A stretch of 64,000 nucleotides of DNA from Squalus acanthias (taxonomy: Eukaryota): positions 3,410,001-3,474,000 of the forward strand of contig CM059432.1 in the NCBI GenBank assembly GCA_030390025.1, written 5' to 3'. Under the pieces are notes generated by a model, which saw only the letters and a program-made list of their open reading frames with translations, was not told where the DNA came from and did not search any database. Shown here in pieces: positions 34,771 through 63,499 of the stretch (its first letter is position 1; each line of letters opens with the position of its first letter). A program made the translations under genes and the position numbers.

Positions 34771-35089
34771 AGGGCAAAGTAAATTATCTGCCATACAACA
34801 GAGTGTCATTTTCCTAATGATATGTTAGCATCCCATGATCCATGATCCCACCATCTCCATAACTGCTCCAAAGTACTAAGAACTAGTAGGACAAAGGCAA
34901 AAATGCATATTAATTGTGCTTACTGTGTGTATTGCATGGTCTTCCCACGTGAAACCTATATAGTTATTCTCCTCTTATGCCTACGGATCCATGATAGTAT
35001 CCACTTCTGATAGCAGCACTCGTGCTGCAAGGTTGCTTGTTAAACTAGGGTCTTTAAGTGAAGTGTGAGGGGATGGTGGATCAGCAGCG

Positions 35090-35400
35090 CTCTCTCTGAA
35101 CGAGGTCTCCCCATAGTCCTATTCCCCTGTCCTTTCCCCATTCCCCCATCGCCCCTGTGCCCTCTCTCTGAACGAGCTCTCCCCATAGTCCCATTCCCCT
35201 GTCCTTTCCCCATTCCCCCATCGCCCCTGTGCCCTCTCTCTGAACGAGCTCTCCCCTCAGTCCCATTCTCCTGTCCTTTCCCCATCCCCCATCATCCCTG
35301 TGCCCTCTCTCTGAACGAGCTCTCCCCTCAGTCCCATTCCCCTGTCCTTTCCCCATTCCCCCATCGCCCCTGTGCTCTCTGAAAGATCTCTCCCATAAGT
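35090..35400. repeat. Minisatellite, unit of about 72 bp, about 4.3 copies
   Basis: ctctctgaa recurs with periods of 72, 72, 71 and 68 bp. Confidence 0.9.
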
Positions 35401-36484
35401 CCCGTTCCAGTTCCAAAATCCACGGTGGATTGTAACGTAGCCAATCATTGATCCAGCACATTATATATGTCAGAGAATCAGAGAATTGTCCGTCTGTAAA
35501 CCACATTCCTGTAAGGATTCAACTCCTTCAAAGGGAGAAAATTGGGCAGAAAATATAGTTAGCACTGACTACAGAATATAACTCTAATTATAGGGAGCAA
35601 TCACCTTCAGTTTCCAATCCTGACAAAGACTCGTAGAGTGGTGCAGCACAGAAGGAGGCCGTTCAGCCCATCGTGCCTGTGCCGGCTCTTTGAACGAGCT
35701 CTCCAATTAGTCCCACTCCCCCCTGCTCTTTCCCCATAGGCCTGCAAATCAGGTATTCATCTCGAAGTTAGATCTCCCTTCCTTGTCATCCATCATAGTA
35801 AACCATGGTGAACATTGCAGACACCTTGTTAATGGTTCTAACACTGGAGATGGTTTCACTGACCTCCTTATCCCCACATCCCTCAGCTTTGGTCTTGAAT
35901 CGAAGAGTATTACAACCTTTGTGTAACGTGGTCTCCTTACTTGGTGCTGGCCATTCACTAACTGGAACAGGTCGCGTGATGCCGTGCCATGGGCATTATG
36001 GTGGATGAGAAGGATGGAGAGGTCCATCTCAAAAGATGTTTCCCATGTTGACCATTTTCTTTGGCGACCTCAGGAGGCGGGTCAGCCGGCTTGATCGGCC
36101 CAGGGGAGCACATCAGTTCCTTATCCTTGGTGGCATAGAAGTTAGTGTGTGGCCATATCCCTGCGTCCATGTCCTCTCGCTGGATCACCAAGTTACAAGG
36201 TAGGACAAATATGACCCTTGTTGGTGCAGCTACAGCACAAAGTCCCTTCTGTTCTCCAGCCACAGTAATAGGGAATTATGGCAGGAATTTCATTATGCAT
36301 TATGCAAAAATTGTTGCATACATGTGCAGTGAGATAAAATGTACGTGCAGTGGGACAGAAATGGAATATGCATGTGTAGGTGTACATCCACACGAGGAGT
36401 CTAGAGGGGATTGTCCACAGAATTAGCTCCATGATTTTGAAAATACCAAACCTATGGGCTTTGAAACATATGGCAAATGAGAAA

Positions 36485-36942
36485 TAAAAGAAAAGAGAGA
36501 CCTGCATTTCTATAGCGCCTTTCAACGACCACCGGACGTCCCAAAGCGCTTTACAGCCAATGAAGTACTTTTTGAAGTGTAGTCACTGTTGTAATGTCGG
36601 AAACGCAGCAGTCAATTTGCGCACAGCAAGCTCCCACAAACAGTAATGTGATAATGACCAGATAATCTGTTTTAGTGATGTTGATTGAGGGATAAATATT
36701 GGCCCCAGGACACAACTCCCCTGCTCTTCTTCGAAATAGATCTTTTACATCCAGCTGAGAGAGCAGACGGGGCTTCGGTTTAACATCTCATCTGAAAGAT
36801 GGCACCTCTGACAGTGCAGCACTCCCTCAGCACTGCACTGGGAGTGTCAGCCTAGCTTTATGTGCTCAGGTTGGTGGAGTGGGACTTGAACCCACGACCT
36901 TCATGACCCAAGCAAGAGTGCTGCCCACTGAGCCACGGCTGA
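36485..36942 (-). mobile_element. DeuSINE (SacSINE1-like)
   Basis: Same family as 20207-20675. Confidence 0.85.
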
Positions 36943-37537
36943 GACATCGATTCCCCCCCCCCCCCCAAATAAACCACATTCAGCCCCCAGTGTAACCCAT
37001 GGACAAACACTTGACAACACAACTTCAGTTCTTATCTCACATATAAACATTGAATGTAATGCAAAATTGGGTATAATAATTGACTTTCACAGTACAAGTG
37101 CAGACCTCGGGACGATGGATTATTCCTAATGCAACATTTTGTTGTTAAAAACTACGTTCCAATCATTGTGATTGTAGCTTCAGCAGTCAGTGAATGAAGA
37201 TCTTGCTGACATACACAGAATCCCTCGGACCTGCTTGTAGTAATAACATTAGCCGCTATGGAGCAGATATTCAGACTGTCAGATGTGTTTATGCTGATTT
37301 ACCAGCAAGTGGAAAGGCCACTTGAGGCATTCAGGTTCCGACCAATGCAAGTTTACATATTCCGATGTAGGTCTAATGTGGCAGTAAATGTAAATTCTAA
37401 CCTACTTTCCAATATAACAAGCCGAATATGCATGCCACAATCACGTATATAAAGGCAACAGGCATTAGGATCAATAGTTTTCTCCCATATTAAGTGGCGC
37501 AGTGTCTGTAATGAACTCTCTTTGCATTGCATTGTAA

Positions 37538-38232
37538 ACTTCAGCTCATCCAAAACTCTGCTGCCCGTGTCCTAACTTGCAACAAGTCCCGTTCACCCAT
37601 CACCTCCTGTGCTCCCCCTTTATGACGCTCCCTAAAACCTACCTCTTTGACCAAGCTTTTGGTCACCTGCCCTAATCTCTCCTTATGTGGCTCGGTGTCA
37701 AATTTGTTGTCTTCCAATGCTCCTGTGACGTGCCTTGGGACGTTTTACTACGTTAAAGGCGCTATATCAATAGAAGTTGTTGTGCTCGCTGACCTACATT
37801 GGCTCCTGGTCCAGCAACGCCTCGATTTTAAAAATTCTCATCCTTGTTCTCAAATCCCTGTGTGGCCTCGCCTCCTCCCTAGCTCTGTAATCTCCTCCAG
37901 CCCTTCAACCTCCCCCCCCCACCCCGAGATATCTGCGCTCCTCTAATTCTGGCCTCTTGCGCATCCCCCCGATTTCCATTGCTCCACCATTGGCGGCCGT
38001 GCCCTCAACTGCCTAGGCCCTAAGCTCTGGAATTCTCTCCCTAAACCTCTCCGCCTCTCTCTCCTCCTTTAAGACGCTCCTTAAAACCTACCTCTTTGAC
38101 CAAGCTTTTGGTCACCTGCCCTAATATCTCCTCATGTGGCTCGGTGTCAAATTTTGTTTGATAATCGCTCCTGTGAAGCGCCTTGGGACGTTTTACTACG
38201 TTAAAGGCGCTATATAAATACAAGTTGTTGTT
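37538..38232 (+). mobile_element. L2 3' region containing a second L2 3' end
   Basis: The L2 tail occurs twice (about 37780 and 38230); VLADLHWL motif. Confidence 0.8.
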
Positions 38233-39130
38233 TTTGTATGTGTATTTTCCATACTTTATATCATAAATCTGTGCAAATTTGTCAAAGTATATCTATTGAT
38301 TTGATATGATGGAAAATGTACGTATTTCAAAAACTGCAAAGGACACTTGGTATTTCAATAAACAATTCAGTGTCTCATTAACACTGAGCTCTAACTCATG
38401 CAATCATTCCATTCTGCTATCGGCATTTATTGGCTTGGAACTCTGTTTGTCTGAATTATAGAAACCGTTATAAACGCAGTAAAGGAGACATTTACATTTT
38501 TATTGGTGTCTATCAGCTGTTGCTTGTTGCTATAGTTTATGCTTTAAGTCTGCTGCAGAGACAGTCTGCACACAGACATTTTGGGCTCCCTTTTCTACGG
38601 ACACAGGAGCAGGAGCAGGAGGAGGCCATTCAGCCCCTCGAGCCTGTTCCACCAGTCAATTAGATCACGGCTGATCTGTATCTTATCTCCGTCTACCCGC
38701 CTGGGTTCCATATCCCTTAATACCGTATCTCTTTGATCAATCGTTTTCTGTCCTAATATCTTATGTGGCCCAATGTCAGATTTTGGTGAAAACGCTTATG
38801 CGAAGCGCCTTGAGACGTTTTACTACCTTGAAGTCGCTATATAAATGCAAGTTGTTGCTGTTGTAACGCCCCTCGGGAATGGGAAGCGGAATGTAATTCC
38901 AGTCTGAAGGGACCGAGAAAGCCATTTAGTTGTGAAGCCAATCTTTATGAAGTATAGAAAGCAGACTAACTCCCACTGTCTCAAGTCAACTAGGGATGGA
39001 CAATAAATCAAGCCTTGCCAGGATTGCCCACATCCTGAGAACACATTCGAAAAATCCAAGTCGGCAGACTCTGAGGGACATGTTGCCTCTTTTTTCACTC
39101 TGTTCTCTTGCGTTTCCAGTTCCATCAGTT

Positions 39131-39595
39131 GTCAGCCGTGGCTCAGTGGGCAGCACCCTCGCCTCTGAGTCAGAAGGTTGTGGGCTCGAGTCCTACTCAA
39201 GACTTGAGCACAAAAATCTAGGCTGACACTCCCAGTGCAGTGCTGAGAGACTGCTGTACTGTCGGAGGTGCCGTCTTTCAGATGAGACGTTAAACCGAGG
39301 CCCTGTCTGCCCTCTCGGGTGGATGTAAAAGATCCCATGGCCACTATTTCAAAGAAGACCAGGGGAGTTCTCCCCGGAATCCTGGCCAATATTTATCCCT
39401 CAATCAACGGCACTAAAAACTGATTATCTGGTCATTATCACATTGCTGTTTGTGGGAGCTTGCTGTGCGCAAATTGGCTGCCGCGTTTCCCACATTACAA
39501 CAGTGACTACACTTCAAAAAGTACTTCATTGGCTGTAAAGCGCCTTGGGGCGTCCGGTGGTCGTGAAAGGCGCTATAGAAATGCAAGTTCTTTCT
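39131..39595 (+). mobile_element. DeuSINE (SacSINE1-like), full length
   Basis: gtcagccgtggctcagtggg head, Deu core, gcgctatagaaatgcaagt tail. Confidence 0.85.
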
Positions 39596-40057
39596 GTTTA
39601 TCAGTTTCTGCCAGCATACTTGCTCATCCTATGCTACTAACTTGCCTGCACCCCACCCCCGCAACAATAAAAATCCAGAGGGAGGGACAGAGGGACCCAG
39701 AGGGAACTAATCTGGTTGCCAAAAGAAATAAAGGTGTGCTGATTAAGAGGGTTGTGAGACTCAACACAACAGCAGTGAAAGGGACTGAGGAATTTGAGTT
39801 TAGAGATTGAACATGTGTAAATATTAATGAGCAGAATTTTAGATTTGGACACACGTGGATTGTAACATGTATAAAAAAAACTGGTTATTTTTTCTAGATA
39901 ATTAACAAAATTCTCTTTGAATTGATTATACAAATAGTAAATATTAAAGATGCAGGGGCAGAGCTAAAGGTTCGTAAGACATGGGGACGGAATGGTTCTT
40001 TCTGCACATATAATCTGCCAAATTGTTTTCCTTCTTCCTACCTGTCTTGTGATATAG

Positions 40058-40514
40058 AAAGAAAGGCTTACATTTATATAGCACCTCAGGACGTCCCAAA
40101 ATGCTTTACAGCCAATGAAGTACTTTTTGAAGTGGAGTCACTGTTGTAATGTCGGAAAAGTGGACAGCCAATTGTGTACAGCAAGCTCCCACAAACAGCA
40201 ATGTGATAATGACCAGATAATCTGTTTTTAGTGATGTTGATTGAGGGATAAATATTGGCCAGGACACCGGAGAGAACTCCCCTGCTCTTCTTCGAAATAG
40301 TGCCCACGGGATCTTTTACGTCCACCTGAGAGAGCAGACGGGGCCTCGGTTTAACGTCTCATCCGAAAGACGGCACCTCTGACAGTGCAGCACTCCCTCA
40401 GCACTGCACTGGAGTGTCAGCCTAGATTTTTGTGCTCAAGTCTCTGGAGTGGGGCTTGAACCCACAACCTTCTGACTCAGAGGCGAGAGTGCTACCCACT
40501 GTGCCAAGGCTGAT
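40058..40514 (-). mobile_element. DeuSINE (SacSINE1-like)
   Basis: Inverted copy relative to 39131-39595. Confidence 0.85.
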
Positions 40515-42315
40515 TGTGTCACAAACACCCACACATACTGTTCAGCAAAGATTACTGGAGCTTGTGGTCTACTCCGCTAATGAGGCACGGCAGCAGCAGA
40601 GCAACTTGACAGGTAAATCTTAACTTGCATAGTTAACGTCACTTTTGTAAAATAATCATTCGTGGGATGTGGGCATCGCTGGCAAGGCCAGAATTTATTG
40701 CCCATCCCTAGCTGTCCTTGAGAAGGTGGTGGTGAGCCTTCTTCAGTGCTGTTAGGGAGGGAGTTCCAGGATTTTGACCCAGCGATGATGAAGGAACGGC
40801 CGATATATGTTCCAGTCAGGATGGTGTGTGACTTGGAGGGGCACTTTATGTAGTATATATATTTGTTAATAAATAAAGCAAAGAAATTTAAGTCCAGGTT
40901 TTCATGTGCAATGTTTGCAACCCCAGAGTGATTGTGTTGACTGTGCGCTGCAGTATAAAGGTGTTAGAAATGAAAAAGATTGTTTCCCCATACATGTACC
41001 AAAAATGTCATTTAGTTCAGATTTACACAACACTAGTTGTTGAGTTTTGAGAGGACTTCACTTGAAAAACCTTCCATGTGTAGAAATAGTATATAGTATG
41101 GAAAAGATTATTCCGGAACGCTACTTTAAATTAAACTGTGGGAGTAAGACAAGGGGACACAGGTTGAAACTAGTAAAAGGCAACTTGAGGACTAAGAACA
41201 GGAGGTCCTTCTTCATGCAGATAATGAGGAACACATGAAATGGACTTCCGAACAAAGAGATTAAATGAAACCCTGGAATCATTTAAGGATCTCTCTAATC
41301 TCCTCCAGCCCTACAACCCTCCAAGATCTCTGCGCTCCTCCAATTCTGGCCTCTTGCGCATCCCCGATTTTAATCGCTCCACCATTGGCGGCCGTGCCTT
41401 CATCTGCCTGGGCCCTAAGCTCTGGAATTCCCTCCCTAACCCTCTCCGCCTCGCTCCATCTTTCGGATGAGACGTTAAACCGAGGCCCCGTTTGCTCTCT
41501 CAGGTGGACATAAAAGATCCCACGGCACTATTTCGAAGAAGAGCAGGGGAGTTATCCTCTGTGTCCTGGCCAATATTTATCCCTCAACCAACATAACAAA
41601 AACAGATTATCTGGTCATTATCACATTGCTGTTTGTGGGAGCTTGCTGTGTACAAATTGGCTGCCGCGTTTCCTACATTACAACAGTGACTACACTTCAA
41701 AAAGCACTTCATTGGATGGCTGTAAAGCGCTTTGGGACGTCCGGTGGTCGTGAAAGGCGCTATAGAAATGCAAGTCTTTCTTTCTTCTTTCTTGCCTCTC
41801 TCTCTCCTCCTTTAAGATGCTCCTTGAAACCTACCTCTTTGACCAAGCTTTTTACGGAAGGTGCAAGATGGGAGTCCGGCATGGAGAGCATTGGAATCGT
41901 TGAGTCCAGAGGTAACAAAGGCATGGATGAGGGTTTCAGCAGCAGATGGGCTGAGGCAGGGGCGGAAACGAGCGATGTTACGGAGGTGGAAGTAGGGCTG
42001 TCTTGGTGATGGAGAGGATGTGTGGTCAGAAGCTCAGCTCAGCGTCAAGGTTGCGAACATTCTGGTTCAGCCTCGGACAGTGACCAGGGAGGGGGATGGA
42101 GTTGGTGGCTAGGGAACGGAGTTTGTGGCGGGGGGAGTGACCACAAGAACTGTATTAACAATCCTGCTTCTCAGAAGCATAAGGCAAGCCTCAAGACCTA
42201 CCAATGTTTACATGTGTCACGTAATCATGTTTGTAACTCAAGACACAATCGTAGAATTGTGTGGTATCACAGACAAATGAATCCTCCCCAATGCGCTTAC
42301 ATGTTGATGTGTAGT

Positions 42316-43348
42316 CAGGGCCGGCCTTACGGGTGGACATCGTGGGCAACTGCCCAGGGCACTGCGGTCAGCAGGGCGCCGTGGTCAAGAGGGTCTGACA
42401 TTAACATTAACATTAACAATGGTCACCACATTACAGGAAGGATGTGATTGCACTAGAGAGGATACAGAGGAGATTTATGAGGATGTTGCCAGGACTGGAG
42501 AATTTTAGCTATAAGGAAAGATTGGATAGGCTGGGGTTGTTTTCTTTGGAACAGAGGAGGCTGAGGGGAGACTTAATTGAGGTGTATAAAATTATGAGGG
42601 GCCTAGATAGAGTGGACAGCAAAGACCTATTTCCCTTAGCAGAGAGGTCAATATCCAGGAGGTATAGATTTAAAGTAATGGGTAGAAGGATTAGAGGGGA
42701 GTTGAGCAGAACTTTTTTCACCCAGAGGGTGGTGGGGGTCTGGAACTCACTGCCTGAAAGGGTGGTAGAGGCAGAAACCCTCATCGCATTTAAAAAGTAC
42801 TTGGATATGCACTTGAAGTGCCGTAACCTACAGGGCCACGGACCAAGAGCTGGAAAGTGGGATTAGGCTGGATAGCTCTTTTTTGGCCGGCACAGACACG
42901 ATGGGCCGAATGGCCTCCTTCTGTGCTGTATCGGTGGCGATGGATAGCACTCAGGGTCCTGTTAACCGTGCCCGTATCGGTGGTGAGCCGCGAACGGAGT
43001 TCTCGAAGTTGAAGCTCATAAAAACGTATTGGCGATCGGCCATGGGAGACGACAGGCTATCTCCACTGGCCATCCTGTCTAGCGAGAATGATGTGGCTCA
43101 AAATATCTTGGTGAACTAAGTTTTTTATTTGTTATTGTTATTTATTAGCTTGGTGTTTAGTTTATTTGTCACTTAGCTGTAATGTTATTTTTTATGACAT
43201 ATCACTGATTATTTAAATTGTAAAAACCTTTTGAGATTACAGCTTTATTTTTGAAACTTTCGCTAATATTACTACATACTTACACTGAAAGAAAGGGCGC
43301 CAAAATACAAGTTCACCCAAGGAGGCATTGCCCCTAAAGCCGGCCCAA
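42316..43348 (+). mobile_element. Internally deleted hAT DNA transposon with nested CR1 3' fragment (about 42420-42930)
   Basis: TIR cagggccggc/gccggccc(aa); 8-bp TSD tgtgtagt/tgtgtagg; remnant hAT C-terminal dimerisation motif FSKLKLIKTYWRSAMGDDRLSPLAILSSE. Confidence 0.85.
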
Positions 43349-43772
43349 TGTGTAGGGTACAGGCGCAAACAGAACACGCAGTCAGGAAAACTCGGATGCT
43401 GAGATGCGATCTGTCTGTGGGTTATAATGAGGTTTCTCACAGGGACAGAACAAGCAATCTCTCACTCTTCCCCTGTTGTCAGAACTTGACGTGTGTACGG
43501 TTCACTAACAAATACAGACCATAATGTTCCCCCCTCCCCCCACTCTTGCCAAAGCTACAAGCTCTTTTCCAGCAGGCCAGTGTAATGACAAAGGAGTGGT
43601 TGGAGCTGAAAAGAGGAGGCAGGGCACATGATGTCACATCTAAATGGCATTTTAAAAATACTCAATCCACACTGCACGCACGCAGGAATATAAATAGAAA
43701 GGTTTGGTATGAAAAGTAGCCACAAAAAAAACCCAAATTGGTTCTGGAGTGTGCATGGCTCAAATTAAACAT

Positions 43773-44515
43773 GGCCCAGAAATTGATCTCGCTCTGTTCC
43801 CGCGGGGGTAAGCCTTCCCCGCGATGTCTCACCTCGCTTATGCTTTTTCTGATCCAGCTCGCACGAACTTGATGTTCCAGACATCAGCTGTGCTGGGCTT
43901 GCGTATCCCAGCGGCGTAGTGAATTCGTGCGAGCTGTGGGATCACGTGACTCAGTTAGAGCCAATGGCAGCACACCATCTTCCATTCATAAGTCTCACAG
44001 CATGGCTGTGAGACTTATGAATCTTACACCCCCCCAAAATAACAGCTAAACCTCAATTAAATAAAAAAAAAAACCCATCACATTAATAAAATAAGTATAG
44101 TTAATTAAATTAACCATTTTAAATAAAAAATAAATTTTTGAAAAAATTTAAAATCTTTTAAAAAGTTATAAAAATAAACTTACCTGTCTTTAAAGTCTAT
44201 AAAAAAGATATACCTGTAAAAAAAAATTCAAAAAAATACTTAATTCACTACTTACCTTCTTAAAAGCGGGTCTTACTCCTCCTTTTTACATTTCCAAAAT
44301 CTTCCCTACTTACCTGCGCGACCAAAGCATGAAGTGCACAGCGTGCGCGCAGCCTGTAGCGCGCACGCGATGCACCCAGGCCCCGCCCCCTTTTCGGAAG
44401 AGCAATTGCCGGTTTTCAGCGCATGCGCAGGGCATGCAGAAAACCAGCAATTGGAGTGGGAATACGCGAGAGTATGCAGTGCGTACTCTCGCGTCCCGAG
44501 ATCAATTTTCGGCCC
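43773..44515. mobile_element. Non-autonomous Harbinger-like TIR element, family X copy A
   Basis: TIR GGCCCAGAAATTGATCTCG / CGAGATCAATTTTCGGCCC; collinear with 61990-62749. Confidence 0.75.
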
Positions 44516-47239: not shown

Positions 47240-47740
47240 CCCACTCTGACCTCGGCCTCTTACACTGTTTCAATGAAGCTCAGTGTAAGCTCGGGGGACA
47301 GCACCTCATCTTTCGATTAGGCACTTTACAACCTTCCGGACTCAACCTCGAGTTCAACATCATAACCACCGCTCCCATATCCTCAGACAGCAGCTGCTGG
47401 TAATGGTTGTGCTGTAGCCATTCACACCTCCTCTAGACCCATCTGTTGTTCCTTTACTTGTCCCATTACCACCCCCTTTCGCCTCACACCATCATCGCTT
47501 TTGTCATTTAATCTCTCCTGCCTTCCACCCCTATCACAGACCTTCCCTTTTGTTCTTTCCTCCCCTCCCTTGCTTAAAACCTGTTACGTCTCTAACTTCT
47601 TCCAGTGCTGACGAAGGGTCATTGACCTGAGACGTTAACTCTGTTCCTCTCTCCACAGAAGCTGCCTGACCTGCTGGGTGTTTCCAGCATTTTCTGTTTT
47701 TATTCCAGGTTTCCAGCAATCCGCAGCATCTTGCTTTTGT
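47240..47740 (+). mobile_element. Penelope-like element 3' end (GIY-YIG endonuclease C-terminus, pLTR with HHR at about 47604-47640)
   Basis: ORF 47194-47403 has QHLIFRLGTLQPSGLNLEF, resembling the Penelope GIY-YIG end. Downstream CTGACGA-aggGTC-att-GACct-GAgA-cgtt is an HHR with a GAAA>GAGA change. Confidence 0.8.
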
Positions 47741-47779
47741 TTGAGCCCAGCAGTATCGGTTTCAAATCTCTTTGTGTTC

Positions 47780-48225
47780 TGAAATAAAAACAGAGAATTC
47801 TATAACACTCAGCAGGTCAGGCAGCCTCCGTGGAGAGAAAGAAACAGAGTTAATGTTTCAGGTCGATGACCCTTCGTCAGAACTCTTTGTGTTCAGGTCT
47901 GTTGCAAGAGCACAAGGAACTTACAGATCAGGAAGAACATTCAACCGATCTTAACTCATTCATTCCAGAACAACTCAACACTTCAGCCCCTATTACGACA
48001 TCTATTTGTTCCTTAAATGATTCCAGAGTTGTTGCTTCTGTCACTCTACCCAGAGCTTCATTACAGGCACCGATCACTCTGTATGAAAAAGAACCTCCTG
48101 CTATTAGTCCTAAAGTTAGTAGTTTGTTAGGGTGCTGACGAAAGCTCATCGACCTGGAACGTTAACTCTCTTTCTCTCTCCACAGATGCTGCCTGATCCG
48201 CTGATTATTGCCAGCATTTTCTGTT
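47780..48225. mobile_element. Inverted pair of Penelope pLTR ends with HHR motifs (minus 47847-47885; degenerate plus 48134-48168) flanking an old CR1 fragment
   Basis: Arms match 61447-61674. Confidence 0.7.
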
Positions 48226-53957: not shown

Positions 53958-54835
53958 GGCCGCGATCTTACCTTTCAGTGTGAGCTGGGAGCGGGACTGC
54001 TGCCTTCAGGGTTCCGATCCCGCTCCCAACAACGTCCAACACAAAGGCGCTATTTTGCGTCAATTGGCCTTGTTAACCCCGCCCTGCGGGCTTGTCGGAC
54101 AATTAAGAGAAAGCTGGTGTCAGATGACGTCAGTTGATGACGCGTAATCTGCCGATTTTCTTAAAGGGGCCACGCACATTTTTTTTTGACAGCTGATTTT
54201 TCAGTGTTTGACAGCATTGAGGTGCTGCAAACACTGACAATCACTGTACAAAGGTGAGCCCTTGCACCCAAACCCTCCAGTGACTCTCTCTTTAGGATAA
54301 AACAGATGGCAGCTGCAGGTGAGGTTACAGAGGCAATCTGTCACTGGTGAGAGAGGTTCTCCCAATGAGCTGGGACTACACAAACACTTCAAACCTTGTT
54401 ACCTACAGAAAAAGTCTAAATACATTAAAAAAGATTTCCCCAACATTTTCTTACCTCTGAAACTCACCAGTGTACCAGTGGATCCTCCACACCACTTCTG
54501 CAGCTGTCATCAATGCAGAAACACGACAGTAGACCCACAACACGCCACACTTACCCGGCATGGTGTCCGGACGTCGGGAAGCCCGCAGTCCTCCTGTCAA
54601 AATTGAAAAAAGCCTCTTAACTGCCTGTTAACTACCTGTTAACAAGCAGTTAAGTGCCTATAATCCTCTTCCCACCGCTAGGTGTCGGGTCCCTGCGCAA
54701 ATCGGGGACCCGACACTTGGGAAGATTGTATGGAGGCGGGTTGACAGCGGGTTTGGGACCCGCTGTCAATCTTTGCAATTTTGCCGGATGTCCCGCCTCC
54801 AAACCCGCCCCCTGAGTGCCGGCAAAATTCCCCCC
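53958..54835. mobile_element. Harbinger-like TIR element, family Y copy D, inserted in CR1 ORF2
   Basis: The CR1 reads aaatacttt|...|attgtgtctgtc (3-bp TSD ttt/att). Homologous, in inverted orientation, to 58871-59709. Confidence 0.75.
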
Positions 54836-56389
54836 ATTGTGTCTGTCTTCACGGAACAAGGCGCAAAAAAACCTCCCGGAAATAGTGGAGAACCAAGGGT
54901 CTAGCGAGAATGAGGAATTGAAAGAAATTAGTACTGGTAAAAAAATAGCACTGGATAAATTAATGGGACGGAATGCCGATAAATCCCCTGGACCTGAAGG
55001 CCTACATCCTAAGCTTTTGAAAGAGGTGGCTATAGAGATAGTGGATGCGTTGGTTGTCATTTTCCAAAATTCCATAGATTCTGGAACGGTTCCTGCGGAT
55101 TGGAAGGTAGCAAATGTAACCCCACTATTTAAGAAAGGAGGGAGAGAGAAAATGGGGAACTACAGACAAATTAGCCTGACATCAATAGTCGGGAAAATGC
55201 TGGAGTCTATTATTAAGGACGTGGTAACAGGGCACTTAGAAAATAATAATAGGATTGGGGAGAGTCAACACAGATTTATGAAAGGGAAATCATGTTTGAC
55301 AAATCTGTTAAAGGTTTTTGAGGTTGTAACTAGCAGAATAGATAAGGGGGAACCAGTGGATGTGGTCTATTTAGATTTTCAGAAGGCATTCGATAAGGTG
55401 CCACACAAGAGGTTATTAAACAAAATTAGGGCTCATGGGATTGGGGGTAATATACTAGCATGGACTGAGGATTGGTTAATGGACAGAAAACAGAGAGTAG
55501 GAATAAACAGGGTCATTTTTGGGTTGGCAGGCTGTAACTAGTGGGGTACCACAAGGATCAGTGCTTGGGCCTCAGCTATTCACAATCTACATCAATGATT
55601 TGGATGAGGGGACCAAATGTAATATATCCAAGTTTGCTGATGATACAAAGCTGGGTGGAAATGTAAGTTATGAGGAGGATGCAAGGAGGCTTCAAGGGGA
55701 TATGGACAGGCTAAGTGAGTGGGCAAGAACATGGCAAATGGAATATAATGTGGAAAAATGTGAAGTTATCCACTTTGGTAGGAAAAATAGAAAAGCAGAG
55801 TATTTTTTAAATGGTGAGAGATTGGGAAATGTTGGTGTTCAGAGGGACCTGGGTGTCCTTGTACACAAATCACTAAGCTAACATGCAGGTACAGCAAGCA
55901 ATTAGGAAAGCAAATGGATTATTACAATAGGATTTGAATATAAGAGTAAAGACGTCTTACTGCAATTATATAGGGCCCTGGTGAGACCACACCTGGAGTA
56001 TTGTGTACAGTTTTGGTCTCCTTATCTAAGGAAGCATATACTTGCCATAGAGGGAGTGCAACGAAGATTCACCAGACTGGTTCCTGGGATGGGGGGATTG
56101 TCCTATGAGAAGAGATTGAGTAGACTAGGCCTATATTCTCTGGAATTTAGAAGAATGAGAGGTGATCTCATTGAAACATACAAAATTCTTACAGGGCTTG
56201 ACAGGGTAGATGCAGGGAGGATGTTTCCCCTGGCTGGAGAGTCTAGAACCAGGGGTCACAGTCTCAGAATAAGGGGTCAGCCATTTAGGACTGAAATGAG
56301 GAGAAATTTCTTCACTAAGAGGGTGGTGAATCTTTGGAATTCTCTACCCCAGAGGACTGTGGAGGCTCAGTCGTTGAGTATATTGAGTC

Positions 56390-56762
56390 AGTGTGTACCA
56401 TCTACAAGATGCACTGCATCAACTCGCCAAGGCTTCTTCGGCAGCCCCTCCCAAATCTGCGACCTCTTTCACCTAGAAGAACAAGGGCAGCAGGCGCATG
56501 GGAACACCACCACCTCCAAGTTCCCCTCCAAGTCACACACCATCCTGACATAGAAATATATCGGCCGTTCCTTCATCGTCGCTGGGTCAAAATCCTGGAA
56601 CTCCCTCCCTAACAGCACTGTGGGAGCACCTTCACCACACGGACTGCAGCAGTTCAAGAAGGTGACTCACCACCACCTTCTCAAGGGCAATTAGAGATGG
56701 GCAATAAATGCTGGCCTTGCCAGCGACGCCCACATCACATAAACGAATAAAACATTTTTTTT
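56390..56762 (+). mobile_element. Family-B LINE 3' end nested in the CR1 3' region
   Basis: Matches 60165-60527. Confidence 0.85.
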
Positions 56763-57805: not shown

Positions 57806-58870
57806 TTCTAATGTAGGATTAGGATCAGTTAAAAGTTTTGGTTTTAGCTTGCCTATTTAAGTGACCTTCACTGTCAGAAGTATTCTTTCGTCTTCCTGCT
57901 AATTTTGTCAAACTGCGTCTGAAAAGAAGAAATAACATTCTCTCCAGTTAATTGTTGGTCACCTAATTGGCAAAAATTAGCCAACTGACAATTTTTAGTT
58001 GGACTTCCATTTTATTACTTCTTTTTATCAGTGGAAACTGTCAGCCTGTGAGAGAGCTCCAATTAGCAGGGTTCGAGCGGACTAAAGCACAGCTACCTAT
58101 TATTTTAATTTAATAACACTTGTTAATAATACTCATCTTATCCTTTTTTAAAAAGACATTTAATTTAAACACACGATAGCAAATCTTACAAGGGATATTT
58201 AAGACTCTTCATTTTTTTTAAGCAATTTTTTTCAAGTGGTGGGAAAAGTGCAATTATATTGTGACAAGTTTACATGTCAGAATTCCCATTAGAATTGCAG
58301 ACATTAGCAATTAAAATGGAAGGAATCGTTAATACAGAAAGTGTGCCAAGACATAAGATTTTTAATACATCATAGACTGATACAGCACTGAAGGACATTC
58401 GGCCCATCGTGCCTGTGCCGGCTCTTTGAAAGAGCTCTCCAATTAGACCCACTCCCTCTGCTCTGTCCCTGTAGCCCTGCTCCTGCCACTTTGAAACACA
58501 GCATAACATAAGAACATAAGAAATAGGAGCAGGAGTAGGCCATTCGGCCCTTCGAGCCTGCTCCGCCATTCAATGAGATCATGGCTGATCTTCTGCCTCA
58601 ACTCCATTCACCGGCCATATCGCCATATCCCTCGATGCCCTTACTTGATAACACTTTTGAAAGTCACTATTGAATTTGCTTCCACCACCCTTTCAGGCAG
58701 TGCATATCTCATATATATTTTTTTCTTTCTCTCCTTTTACTGCCACTTAGTTCCTTCCTGAGGCATGGTTGGGATATGCTCACAAGTAGCCATTCTTCAT
58801 AAAAACAGAAAATGCTGGAAATACTCAGCCGGTCGGGCAGCATCTGTGGAGAGAGAGAAACAGAGTTAAC

Positions 58871-59709
58871 GGGCAGAATTTTCACTGACCCGTGGAGGCG
58901 GGTTTGGAGGCGTGTGGGGTGGGAAAATAGCAGATTCCCGAACCCATCCCGCCCCCAACCCGCCTCCTATGCCAGTTTCCCAGGAGGTGAGTACCCGACC
59001 TGTGCTGGGACCCGCCTCCCCGAGGCGGGAAGGGGATTTAGTGCCAATAAACTGCCTGTTAACAGGTAGTTAACAGGCAGTTTTTTGCCTAATCCCTATT
59101 TTTAGCCCTGAAGTGTGGGCTTCCCGACAGGTCCGAACCACGCCGATTTAGCGAGGCGGACCGTTGGTCTGGAAGGCTTGGAGGGGTCGAGATGTCCGGT
59201 GTGCAGGTGAGTGATGGGTGCATGAGTGCAGAGGTAAGTGTGTTTGGTGTGTGTAAAGTGTTTTAAGAACTTTTACTTACCTTAACTTTGTCCTCCAGGC
59301 TTCCTCCCTTCAGTTCTCGGGAGTCCCTCAGCTCACCAGCACAGAAAGCAGAATGGCCGCGGAGCTGTCAAAAGCTGCAGTCTCTGCTTTCTGTGCTGGA
59401 TTGATTTCTAACTGAGTCTAAGTACAGGGACTCAAGTTAGAAATCATATTGTCAGTGTTTGACAGCTTCACAGAGCTGTCAAACGCTGAAATTTCATCTG
59501 TCAAAAGCTCTTGACAGATGAAATTTCAATGGCTGACGTTACCTGTATCCAAGGGACCCTTGATTGGCCTGCTGAGCCCGCTGGGCGGGCTTAACAAGGT
59601 CAATCAAGGGAAAATACAGTGGGTTGGCCACAAGTTGATGGAGGCGGGACTACAACCCAAAAAGTGGGAGTCCCGCCTCCATCACGTCCCCATTGACAAA
59701 ATCCAGCCC
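58871..59709. mobile_element. Harbinger-like TIR element, family Y copy C
   Basis: TIR GGGCAGAATTTT/AAAATCCAGCCC, exact 3-bp TSD AAC, several internal palindromes. Confidence 0.85.
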
Positions 59710-59771
59710 AACGTTTCAGGTCGGTGACCTTTCGTCAGAACTGGAAGAGGTTAGAGTATTAACAGTTTATA

Positions 59772-60527
59772 ATGACTATCTCCAACAAGCGAGAGTCTAA
59801 CCACCGGCCCTTGACATTCAACGGCATTACCATCGCTGAATCCCCCACCATCAACATCCTGGGGGGGTCACCATTGACCAGAAATTTAACTGGACCAGCC
59901 ACATAAATACTATGGCTACAAGAGCAGATCAGAGGCTAGGTATTCTGTGGCAAGTGTCTCACCTCCTGACTCCCCAAAGCCTTTCCACCACCTACAAGGC
60001 ACAAGTAAGGAGTGTGATGGGATACTCTCCACTTGCCTGGATGAGTGCAGCTCCAACAACACTCAAGAAGCTCGACATCATCCAGGACAAAGTAGCCCAC
60101 TTGATTGGCACCCAATCCACCACCTTAAACATTCACTCCCTCCACCACCGGTGTACCGTGGCTACAATGTGTACCATCTACAAGATGCACTGCAGCAACT
60201 CGCCAAGGCTTCTTCGGCAGCACCTCCCAAACCCGCGACCTCTACCACCTAGAAGGACAAGGGCAGCAGGCGCACGGGAACACCACCACCTCCAAGTTCC
60301 CCTCCAAGTCACACACCATCCTGACTTGGAAGTATATCGCCGATCCTTCATCGTCGCTGGGTCAAAATCCTGGAACTCCCTCCCTAACAGCACTGAGGGA
60401 GTACCTTCACCACACGGACTGCAGCGGTTCAAGAAGGCAGCTCACCACCACCTTCTCAAGGGCAATTAGGGATGGGCAATAAATGCTGGCCTTGCCAGCG
60501 ACGCCCAGATCCCATGAACAAATAAAA
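59772..60527 (+). mobile_element. CR1/L2-group LINE family B, 3' 750 bp
   Basis: ORF 59912-60469: YKAQVRSVMGYSPLAWMSAAPTTLKKLDIIQDK...SWNSLP; poly(A) signal and tail. Confidence 0.85.
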
Positions 60528-61218
60528 TTTTAAGCAATTGCAGAGCTAAGGAAAAGGGTGGGGGAGGTGCGGGCGTGGGGAGGAGATGGGGTGAGGGAGG
60601 GAATAACAAAAGGCAAGTTCTGACGTAAAGTCACCAACCAGAAACGTTGGGCTGAATTTTCCGGGGAGGTAGATGGCAGGATCAGTGGCAGGTCGGGTGG
60701 GAAAGTTGGTTTTTTTGACAGCGGGTTAAGAGCCTTTTCCCCCCTACTTTTTAAATTTCCCTGCATGGCCATGGGATTCACACAGCTCGGGAACCCCGTC
60801 TGTCAACCTGAGGCGTGAGTTCAGTGGCCATTGCTCCAGCTGATTACTTGACAGCATGGAAAACAAACCAAAATAAAAACATGTTGATCACATCAGCTAA
60901 CAGATTGATGGAGATTCTGTTCTACTTGAAAAGCTACTGGTAAATGTTAATTTTTCACTGTCCATTCTCGGCTGTTGTCTTCCAACAGGACAGTCATTGC
61001 AGTGAATTGATCTGCGCTATAAAAAGATGACACATACCATTTAAATAAACATTTGTGTTGTTTCTGGTCAGGTTTTTGTCACAGTATACTGTGATTGTCC
61101 AGTTACACATAAATCAAGTCATCAACCGTAACAATTTCGTTCTCATCACTCATTCCACTGGTTCAATTTGCTCTCAGTCCCTGAATATAACTAATTTAAT
61201 TTTTCAGTCTGAGACTTT

Positions 61219-61376
61219 AGGGTGAATTTCTGCAGAGGTTCTCTCACTTGTCCATTGTTAACTTCAACGGGAGAGCTGCATAAATCCCAGAAACACATTG
61301 CAAGCACCATTTACACTGTTTGTCAGGGATTCCGCAGCTCTTCTGCTGAACTTGCGTAAGGTCGTAAATCCACCCC
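61219..61376. mobile_element. 158-bp palindromic MITE
   Basis: TIR AGGGTGAATTT/AAATCCACCCC, TTT on both flanks, internal inverted repeat gagagctgc..aaatccc/gggatt..gcagctctt. Confidence 0.55.
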
Positions 61377-61446
61377 TTTACAATTGCATTTAAAATCTGC
61401 TTAATTTTATGTATTACCTATACACACACATCTTATATTTGTACCA

Positions 61447-61674
61447 ACAACAGAAAGCGCTGGAAAAACTCAGCAGGCCAGGCAACATCCGTGGAGAGAG
61501 AAACAGAGTTAACGTTTCAGGTCGAAGACCCTTCGTCAGAACAGTTCTGACGAAGGGTCTTCATCCTGAAACGCTAACTCTGTTTTGCTCTCCACGGATA
61601 TTGCCTGGCCTGCTGAGTTTTTCCAGCGCTTTTTGTTGTTATTTCAGTTTTCCAGCATCCGCAGTATTTTGCTA
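61447..61674. mobile_element. Palindromic Penelope pLTR remnant with two back-to-back HHRs
   Basis: Inverted arms of about 95 bp centred at 61542; perfect 14-bp flanking direct repeat ttatatttgtacca. Confidence 0.85.
61506..61541 (-). ncRNA. Minimal type I hammerhead ribozyme motif, intact core (family 1)
   Basis: guu-CUGACGA-a-GGGUC-uuc-GACCU-GAAA-C-GUU-aac. Stem I guu/aac, stem II, palindromic stem III ACGU, NUH = GUU. Confidence 0.75.
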
Positions 61675-61989
61675 TTATATTTGTACCAGTTACTGATACA
61701 AAAGTCTACAGATTTGTGACTAAAGCACCAATAACTTCCCAATTAATGTACTTTTTAAATTATGTTCTTGATCGTGTTTGTAGATGGAGTCATATTACTG
61801 AATGATAATTTTATTTAAAGATTTGTTTGTCACTCATATATAACTTTTATTATGTTATTGTACAGTAAAGATTCAACACCCACTATGTTAGATTAAACTT
61901 AAAATGCAATGTGGCCATGGTCCCTTTAAAGATCCCGACTTAATACTTAAAACCCTTAAAACTCCTGCTCCTATTTCTTATGTTCTTAT

Positions 61990-62749
61990 GGCCCAGAAAT
62001 TCGGGTTGGAGGATTCCCGCGGGCGCAAGCCCCCAACCTGCACTTACATAGCACGCCTGCCGTTGTGATGTGGACCTGCGTGGGATTCGGATCCTGGGCC
62101 TCCTCCAGCTGCCGGCGCGCAGTGCTCGCGTATCCCAGTGGCGAAGCTAGTTCGCAGCGTCCCCTGGGATCACGTGGGCCATGGGGAGCCAATCGGAGCA
62201 GGGAATCTCCATTCATAGATTTGACAGGAAGACCTGTCAAATCTATGAATAGAGATCGGCCCCAAAACCCAAGTAAAACTTCAAATACATTAAAAAAAAA
62301 AATCACATTTTTAAAATAACTATAAATTACACAAATTAACTATTTTAAACAAAAATTTAAATTTTTGAAAAAATTAATTAAAGTTTTTAACGGGGCTAAA
62401 AATAAACTTACCTTTCTTTAAAGTATTTAAAAATGATAAACCTGTGGAAAAAATGTTTCAATTTTACTTAATTCACCTCTTACCTTGTTAAAGGCAGGCC
62501 TTGCGCCTGCTTTTTCCCCGCGCAGCTGCTAGGGACTTACCCACACGGAGAAACCTGTAAAACAAGCGAAAGTTCCAGGTCTACGCGCTGCCTCTCCGGC
62601 GCACGTGTTTGACCCGCGAACCCCTTCCTTCAAGGGAACGGAAGTTCCGGTTTCCAGCGCATGCGCAGTGCATGCGCGAAACCGGCACTTTCGTTGGCCT
62701 TACGGGTGAGTACACAGCGCGTACTCACCCGTGGGGACCCGAATTTCTG
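61990..62749. mobile_element. Harbinger-like TIR element, family X copy B
   Basis: TIR CAGAAATTCGGGT/ACCCGAATTTCTG; TAT on both flanks, within a CR1 (tatgttct)n tail. Confidence 0.75.
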
Positions 62750-63499
62750 TATGTTCTTATGAATGACATCACCAGACCCGCTCCACCTCATTGGGCTGGG
62801 TAACGCGCTGGGCGGGCTTAATAGGCCCCATTAAGGTAAGTTCATTTTGTACAGCGTGATGGAGCCAGCAGCGGGGTCGCGTCCCGCCATAGACACCGGC
62901 CACACCAGACCCGCCCAGGTAAGGAAAATTCCTGCCGTTAGCTCTGTTTCTCTCTCCGCGGACGCTGCCCGACCTGCCGAGCGTCTCCAGCATTTTCTGT
63001 TTCTGATTTCGGATTTCCAGCCTCGGCAGTATTTTGCTTTCATGTGTGAGCCTAGACTGAGGGCTTTTAACCATTGGATGATATCACAACCGAGGCCAAA
63101 CAGGGTTACGGACAAAAGAAGCGGGACTAAAGCACGACGGCTCTTGCAGAGAGCCGGCACGGGCACGACGGGCCGAATGGCCTCCTTCTGTGCTGTAAGT
63201 TTCTGTCATTCTACGATAACCCGATGTCACACATGCACGCTTTCCCCCCCACTACCTAAACCTCAATTTGCAGTTCTGCTAAACCCCCCCCACCCCCAAA
63301 CCTCCTTATGTTGGCCTTTTCGCTAAAATAAACATGTGTATAACCATTTTGAGATGAGGCCTGAACTTATTTCAGGTGGCCACCAGGGGCACCCTAACAA
63401 AAAAAAAAGGACCCTGACTAATTCAGCAGTGGGCCCGGCTAAATTAATTAGATATCTAATGCAAATGAAGCAGCATTGTGTAATTAGCTTTGCTAGAGT

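Follow-up and report, generated by a model that had tools for sequence, protein, structure and literature searches.

Palindromic target preference probably makes the hammerhead-like motif of Penelope elements a recurrent insertion site of Harbinger-type transposons in Squalus acanthias

The window analysed here, a 64,000-bp stretch of the Squalus acanthias genome (GCA_030390025.1, contig CM059432.1, positions 3,410,001 to 3,474,000 of the forward strand), contains an inverted remnant of a Penelope retroelement whose two arms each carry a hammerhead-like motif split by a Harbinger-type DNA transposon. In all likelihood, several PIF/Harbinger families recurrently insert at the GTT of this motif because the DNA there matches a palindromic target of about 15 bases that these transposons read everywhere in the genome. 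The hot spot is real but incidental: it is a side effect and no attack on the ribozyme, and it represents a new instance of a known target-preference trait, not a new targeting system.

The Penelope remnant spans 58.8-63.0 kb of the window, with its arms diverging from an inversion point near 60616 (Table 1). As the first-pass annotation had described, the motif of each arm is interrupted right after GAAAC-GTT by an element flanked by duplicated GTT, and the plus-arm core is degenerate, reading CTGACGT. Helix II of this arm is broken as well. The empty-site form, GAAAC-GTT-AAC, is visible in an uninterrupted copy at 61447-61674. Both splitting elements have ends of the form GG(G/C)...ATTTT, and they are oriented opposite to each other relative to the ribozyme (repeat D6). 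Their assignment to Harbinger, also proposed at first pass, is borne out by their ends, their 3-bp duplication and their transposase and Myb partners. Terminal inverted repeats of the GGGC(A/T)G(A/G)ATTTT type are found on both window inserts and their relatives, and in the 25 relatives of insert 1 for which both ends could be located, the 3-bp duplication is identical in 19 and has one mismatch in the other six. Positions 60649 and 62936, which had been named as the ends of insert 2, are its true termini, as all 24 relatives end in register with 62936 (mostly in ...GGAAAATTCCGGCC) and 12 of the 24 match the left end at 60649, nine of these 12 being 1.33-1.41 kb long. The window copy is longer than its relatives because it contains two later insertions. 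The two inserts have only their ends and one 50-bp stretch with 74% identity in common and thus belong to different families that arrived in two independent events, in agreement with the earlier claim; a single event copied by the inversion was rejected for the same reason.

Elements of about 4 kb that carry transposase and Myb genes between Harbinger-type ends and are flanked by a 3-bp duplication are present elsewhere in the genome, supplying the autonomous partner with a HARBI1-type transposase that the first-pass annotation had envisaged. Locus L108 encodes DDE_Tnp_4 (PF13359, expectation (E) value 2.9e-42) and PF13873 (Myb, E 1.8e-4), and the 4,160-bp element of L269, which itself sits in the ribozyme site, has transposase and Myb genes by tblastn and agrees with insert 1 in 25 of 27 right-end bases. 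Coding partners with such ends, including L269, establish the PIF/Harbinger assignment of the inserts at the superfamily level, as distinct from the exact family that mobilised each of them. Long elements with matching ends in L112 and L130 hold a Myb-like piece and yielded no transposase match, and at L120:1790-7638 a short Harbinger-type element has grown to 5.8 kb through a GA-rich simple repeat. A search for the Harbinger transposase family gave 63,886 first-look candidates genome-wide, 150 of which were scored, and many candidates have open frames of 384-392 codons; the superfamily is accordingly highly abundant and was probably active in recent times.

Insertion at the hammerhead GTT is frequent and precise. 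Exact junctions number 693 genome-wide compared to 0 for a reversed-pattern control, and at least 1,297 when three 13-base variants of the site are summed. With 31 positions allowed behind the motif (543 matches in all), 90 of the first 100 insertions among the matches listed lie exactly on the triplet and three more do so with a 1-base deletion, while the remainder are found at +6 (n = 3), +2 (n = 2), +8 (n = 1), and -3 (n = 1). Approached from the opposite side (696 matches in all), 83 of the 100 scored among the matches listed are exact, nine show length changes, five lie at +8, and three at +6. The inserts at the ribozyme site vary in their ends, orientation, and length (235 bp to 5.9 kb), indicating that they are mostly independent events, and the duplicated letters vary while the insertion position stays fixed, which points to the flanks as the signal. 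An inverted partner arm accompanies 16 of 60 occupied and 2 of 10 empty loci, and because these frequencies do not clearly differ, a cruciform effect visible in the 70 loci was rejected. The partner arm is itself occupied in one of the 16 two-armed loci, so that double hits like that in the window occur elsewhere, at about the rate of older copies.

The preference that would account for this position can be read from elements located elsewhere. A set of 49 paired elements chosen without regard to target gave a palindromic consensus of approximately WGASWC-WWW-GWSTCW, with A at -4 in 90 and C/T at -1 in 93 of the 98 half-sites and G at the first duplicated base in only three of 98. This consensus is repeated by 19 further elements of the insert 1 family, one of which occupies the ribozyme site and was dropped before enrichment was predicted. 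Within the Penelope repeat, a matrix from which ribozyme sites were left out gives the GTT site the top rank, followed by +8, +2, and +6, and these are the minor sites actually seen. The GTT site scores higher than 99.85% of random positions, yet it is middling among real targets, 6 of 19 of which score lower.

Occupancy differs markedly between variants of the site. The intact GTT form is occupied in 693 of 65,965 copies (1.05%), the TGTT variant in 154 of 5,598 (2.75%), and the mutated ATT form in 450 of 6,680 (6.7%); relative to TGTT, a rough control for copy age, the ATT form is therefore still 2.4 times fuller. The ribozyme is far surpassed as a hot spot by a site in the reverse-transcriptase region of a long interspersed nuclear element (LINE), which we take to be CR1 and in which an RVT_1 domain (E 9e-8) adjoins the site (e.g. 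L044, L054, and L160). About 1,820 (26%) of its 7,092 copies continue with GGG and about 2,290 (32%) with GG, as extrapolated from 100 among the matches listed in each of two complementary searches that together cover all matches, and it is thus occupied approximately 25 times more often than the ribozyme GTT site. A search for the LINE site with a rare flank variant gave nine matches. In the main comparison, the order of occupancy (GTT < ATT < LINE site) follows that of the matrix, which predicts enrichments over the average of about 150-170-fold for GTT (bootstrap 5-95% about 50-390), 1,500-1,750-fold for ATT, and 14,000-16,000-fold for the LINE site; the counts give roughly 550-700-fold for GTT and about 18,000-fold for the LINE site. 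Of 18 loci with ATT as the left duplication and both ends located, 12 have ATT on the right as well, and 15 of 18 such loci with GTT on the left also have GTT on the right (in each set, 12 of 30 loci showed no far end within the locus). Most such ATT sites were accordingly ATT before insertion, and many hits fell on copies already lacking the G needed by the ribozyme.

From the viewpoint of the transposons, the ribozyme is a minor destination. It holds one of the 29 closest relatives of insert 1, none of the 24 of insert 2, and none of the 49 unselected paired elements. Among 100 listed termini with flanks, a set that overlaps the 49 paired elements, 24 represent one constant-flank repeat, and the other 76 include none in the ribozyme and six in one LINE site. 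We estimate that 1-4% of the elements sit in the ribozyme site, where a value of 2-4% is obtained by setting approximately 60% of the 1,297 junctions, the share with the commonest end (19 of 30), against roughly 35,000-44,000 elements, i.e. 90,157 termini minus chance matches and the constant-flank repeat. The idea of preferential targeting raised at first pass thus stands in that an extended preference makes the triplet a hot spot, and fails in that the family is not aimed at the ribozyme, as the other 28, all 24, and all 49 of these elements lie elsewhere.

The same unselected insertions include at least three more repeat-borne hot spots with the flanks GTACTC-TAT, AAATAC-TTT, and AAAGAC-AAT (L057, L122, L128, L266, and window positions 53958-54835). 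The GTACTC-TAT site is often filled; its search pattern was biased and no occupancy figure was drawn. The related copy at 53958 indeed occupies a different target, of the AAATAC-TTT-GTGTCT type. The constant-flank repeat, which precedes a Harbinger-like end in 8 of 30 and 24 of 100 listed termini (L031, L033-L036, L049, L050, and L060) and has three copies at intervals of 4,247 bp, may derive from an ancient insertion that travels with a different mobile or tandem unit.

Mechanistically, a Myb/transposase pair would read the flanks, chiefly A at -4, C/T at -1, and the mirror bases, and the transposase complex would make a staggered cut of three bases. The two half-sites would come from the GAAAC of the conserved catalytic core and from AACTC in the helix I strand, which would place the duplicated bases on the predicted cleavage triplet. 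The G that the ribozyme would need in this triplet is the only base disfavoured by the transposons, which makes mutated copies better targets than intact ones. Given tens of thousands of elements and more than 65,000 target copies, occasional remnants with hits in both arms are to be expected. Insertion is predicted to destroy self-cleavage of the copy concerned; approximately 99% of the copies with an intact sequence are untouched.

Several observations weigh against such a purely sequence-driven explanation. The GTT ribozyme site is 2-5 times fuller than the matrix predicts, the matrix assigns 65-75% of the weight to the main position compared to 92-93 of 100 insertions seen there, and the TGTT variant is predicted to be worse than intact GTT, yet is occupied more, for which copy age may be the reason. 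The training set was also small (36-49 distinct targets) and came mostly from one contig. The 2-5-fold excess could stem from the small size of the training sets and from CpG decay in GTT duplications. Alternatively, sequence preference may set the position while a feature of Penelope ends, such as hairpin or cruciform DNA at inverted arms, open chromatin, or longer-range sequence, adds a boost, which would fit both this excess and the larger share of insertions taken by the main site. We consider this unlikely: the partner arm is about as frequent at occupied as at empty loci, and CpG decay on GTT duplications would drop such sites from a training set built on matching duplications and thereby lower the predicted value. 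It is likewise doubtful that the Penelope ribozyme constitutes an inescapable target, in which the catalytic bases would fix most of the half-sites, a Penelope-specific feature would raise their use several-fold, and a standing conflict would leave the triplet G as the only protection.

Much less probable is that these families evolved to aim at the ribozyme, either as a safe harbour, as first suggested, or to disable a rival retroelement. The hit is exact, three exact 13-base variants of the site together show it at least 1,297 times, and many families, including full-length elements, use the site, all of which such aiming would explain; it is, however, largely refuted by the occupancy counts. 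A safe harbour would hold most copies in one host site, but only the estimated 1-4% of elements and none of the 76 non-redundant-flank termini are found in the ribozyme, the LINE site is far fuller, and intact triplets are the least occupied, the reverse of what would be expected if working ribozymes were sought. Moreover, a Penelope copy with an open frame of 876 codons persists. We see even less reason to regard the composites as old Penelope-plus-insert units that spread together. Loci L011 and L012 do share flanks and insert, and the constant-flank dispersed repeat makes up 24 of 100 listed termini, but the diversity of the inserts in ends, length, and orientation and the different families of the two window inserts argue strongly for separate insertions. 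Recurrent insertion guided by a general target preference is therefore the explanation we favour.

The repeat carrying the motif, which the first-pass annotation had assigned to Penelope, is the 3' end of such an element. One of 20 random 10-kb stretches of the genome contained a Penelope copy (L165:7158-9788, minus strand) with an uninterrupted 876-codon reverse transcriptase and GIY-YIG frame (RVT_1, E 2.1e-5; GIY-YIG, E 3.4e-4; both slightly below the Pfam cut-offs), followed after approximately 280 bases by a hammerhead-like motif, and the window arms share 81-93% identity with its 3' end. A genome search for the GIY-YIG family gave one match, with no ribozyme nearby. Read from the sequence, the motif has the core boxes, an NUH triplet, a palindromic C-G at 15.2-16.2, and helices I and II, and it lacks a helix III loop. 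An Rfam search of the window returned no hammerhead family up to E 1, as would be expected for minimal motifs without helix III, so that the ribozyme reading rests on motif and context. Of 63 copies, 54 have a fully paired helix II, with an A-U/G-U exchange at one pair; two-sided changes were absent among the common types. In place of G10.1-C11.1 as the first pair of this helix, 32 of the 63 copies have A-U and 30 have G-U. Under the numbering of PMC4209133, GUU would be the predicted cleavage triplet. In single-strand folding of the empty motif, helix II forms and the hammerhead fold does not, which is expected of a motif said to need a dimer.

Table 1. Features of the split Penelope remnant and of an in-window control, in window coordinates.
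Feature	Position	Strand	Basis
Penelope 3' end past the predicted cleavage site, minus arm	58799..58867	-	85% identity to the 3' end of the Penelope copy with the 876-codon frame
Target site duplication, copy 1 (AAC; GTT on the minus strand)	58868..58870	-	Read from sequence
Insert 1, non-coding Harbinger-type element of 839 bp (GGGCAGAATTTT...AAAATCCAGCCC; family about 835-845 bp)	58871..59709	+	29 relatives, 88-98% identity; right end agrees in 25/27 bases with a transposase-bearing element
Target site duplication, copy 2 (AAC), predicted G16.2-U16.1-U17 cleavage triplet	59710..59712	-	Numbering inferred from PMC4209133
Minimal type I hammerhead-like motif: helix I 5' strand, CUGACGA, one bulged base, 5-bp helix II, GAAAC (core CTGACGA...GAAAC, 59738-59713)	59713..59742	-	Sequence reading
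Unrelated repeat inserted into the minus arm, presumably a LINE 3' end	59773..60527	+	Second copy at 56389-56752, 93-94%
Rest of Penelope minus arm up to the inversion point	60528..60616	-	By-eye likeness to the upstream flank of other copies
Plus-arm hammerhead-like motif, degenerate (core 60620-60645), ending in the GTT duplication (60646-60648)	60617..60648	+	Sequence reading
Insert 2, Harbinger-type element with two later insertions (family about 1.35 kb)	60649..62936	+	24 relatives, 90-93% over the right end
Later insertion in insert 2: uninterrupted inverted pair of Penelope ends with two hammerhead-like motifs	61447..61674		Gap in the alignment to relatives; inverted repeat I5
Harbinger-type element 3 (GGCCCAGAAATT family, about 763 bp), enclosed by a short repeat fragment within insert 2	61990..62749	+	83% to a 763-bp paired element; ends resemble those of transposase-bearing elements
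GTT duplication (62937-62939) and Penelope 3' end, plus arm	62937..63040	+	83% to Penelope copy
Related element in another target (AAATAC-TTT-GTGTCT type), in-window control	53958..54835		Same target also struck in L251, L260, L264, L124, and L156

The nesting in the window bears on the relative age of the elements. As an inverted pair of Penelope ends lies inside a Harbinger-type element that itself sits in a Penelope ribozyme, either the active periods of the two overlapped or Penelope outlasted insert 2. Three further uninterrupted Penelope ends, one of them an ATT variant, occur close together at 47607-48200.

These results cleanly illustrate, in a natural setting, how the 15-base target preference known from Harbinger elements creates hot spots, exact to the base, within abundant repeats. 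The tens of thousands of near-identical targets with one-base variants amount to an in-genome measurement of this preference (1% vs. 7% vs. about 26%), and the case is a warning against taking the exactness of an insertion into a functional motif as evidence of evolved targeting. The 63,886 transposase candidates also bear on a question about cartilaginous fish in the available text of PMC9179366, according to which no Harbinger was found in the elephant shark and other species should be checked. In the literature covered by our search, which left most subscription journals and the Repbase entries outside, we found no report of transposons inserting at Penelope hammerheads, and the part of the main text of PMC4209133 available to us does not mention DNA transposons inserting at the motif.

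The motif itself closely resembles the minimal type I hammerhead motifs of Penelope-like terminal repeats described by Cervera and de la Pena (2014, PMC4209133, available text, as for the papers below). It shares with them the CUGAnGA and GAAA core, the palindromic 15.2-16.2 position, the absence of a helix III loop, one unpaired base before helix II, a short helix I, the mostly solo or inverted copies, and the location at the end of a reverse transcriptase and GIY-YIG frame. It differs in the first pair of helix II, which is A-U or G-U here and G10.1-C11.1 there. Low activity has been reported for other minimal hammerhead motifs (PMC4209133). On the transposon side, a 15-bp target preference in vertebrates has been stated (PMC2836001), and zebrafish Harbinger3_DR is reported to prefer the palindrome AAACACCWGGTCTTT (PMC3016246). 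Like the shark elements, Harbinger3_DR combines a DDE transposase with a Myb-like protein, a 3-bp duplication, and a palindromic target of about 15 bp, and its consensus likewise shows C at -1 and A at both -2 and -4. In contrast to its CWG, the duplicated bases in Squalus are A/T-rich and loosely fixed, G predominates at -5, the preference is common to many families, and the hot spots lie inside abundant retroelements. The mPing/Tourist elements of plants are similar to the window inserts in being short non-coding elements moved by PIF/Harbinger proteins with a 3-bp duplication and an extended preference, but this preference covers 9 bp around TTA/TAA (PMC2836001).

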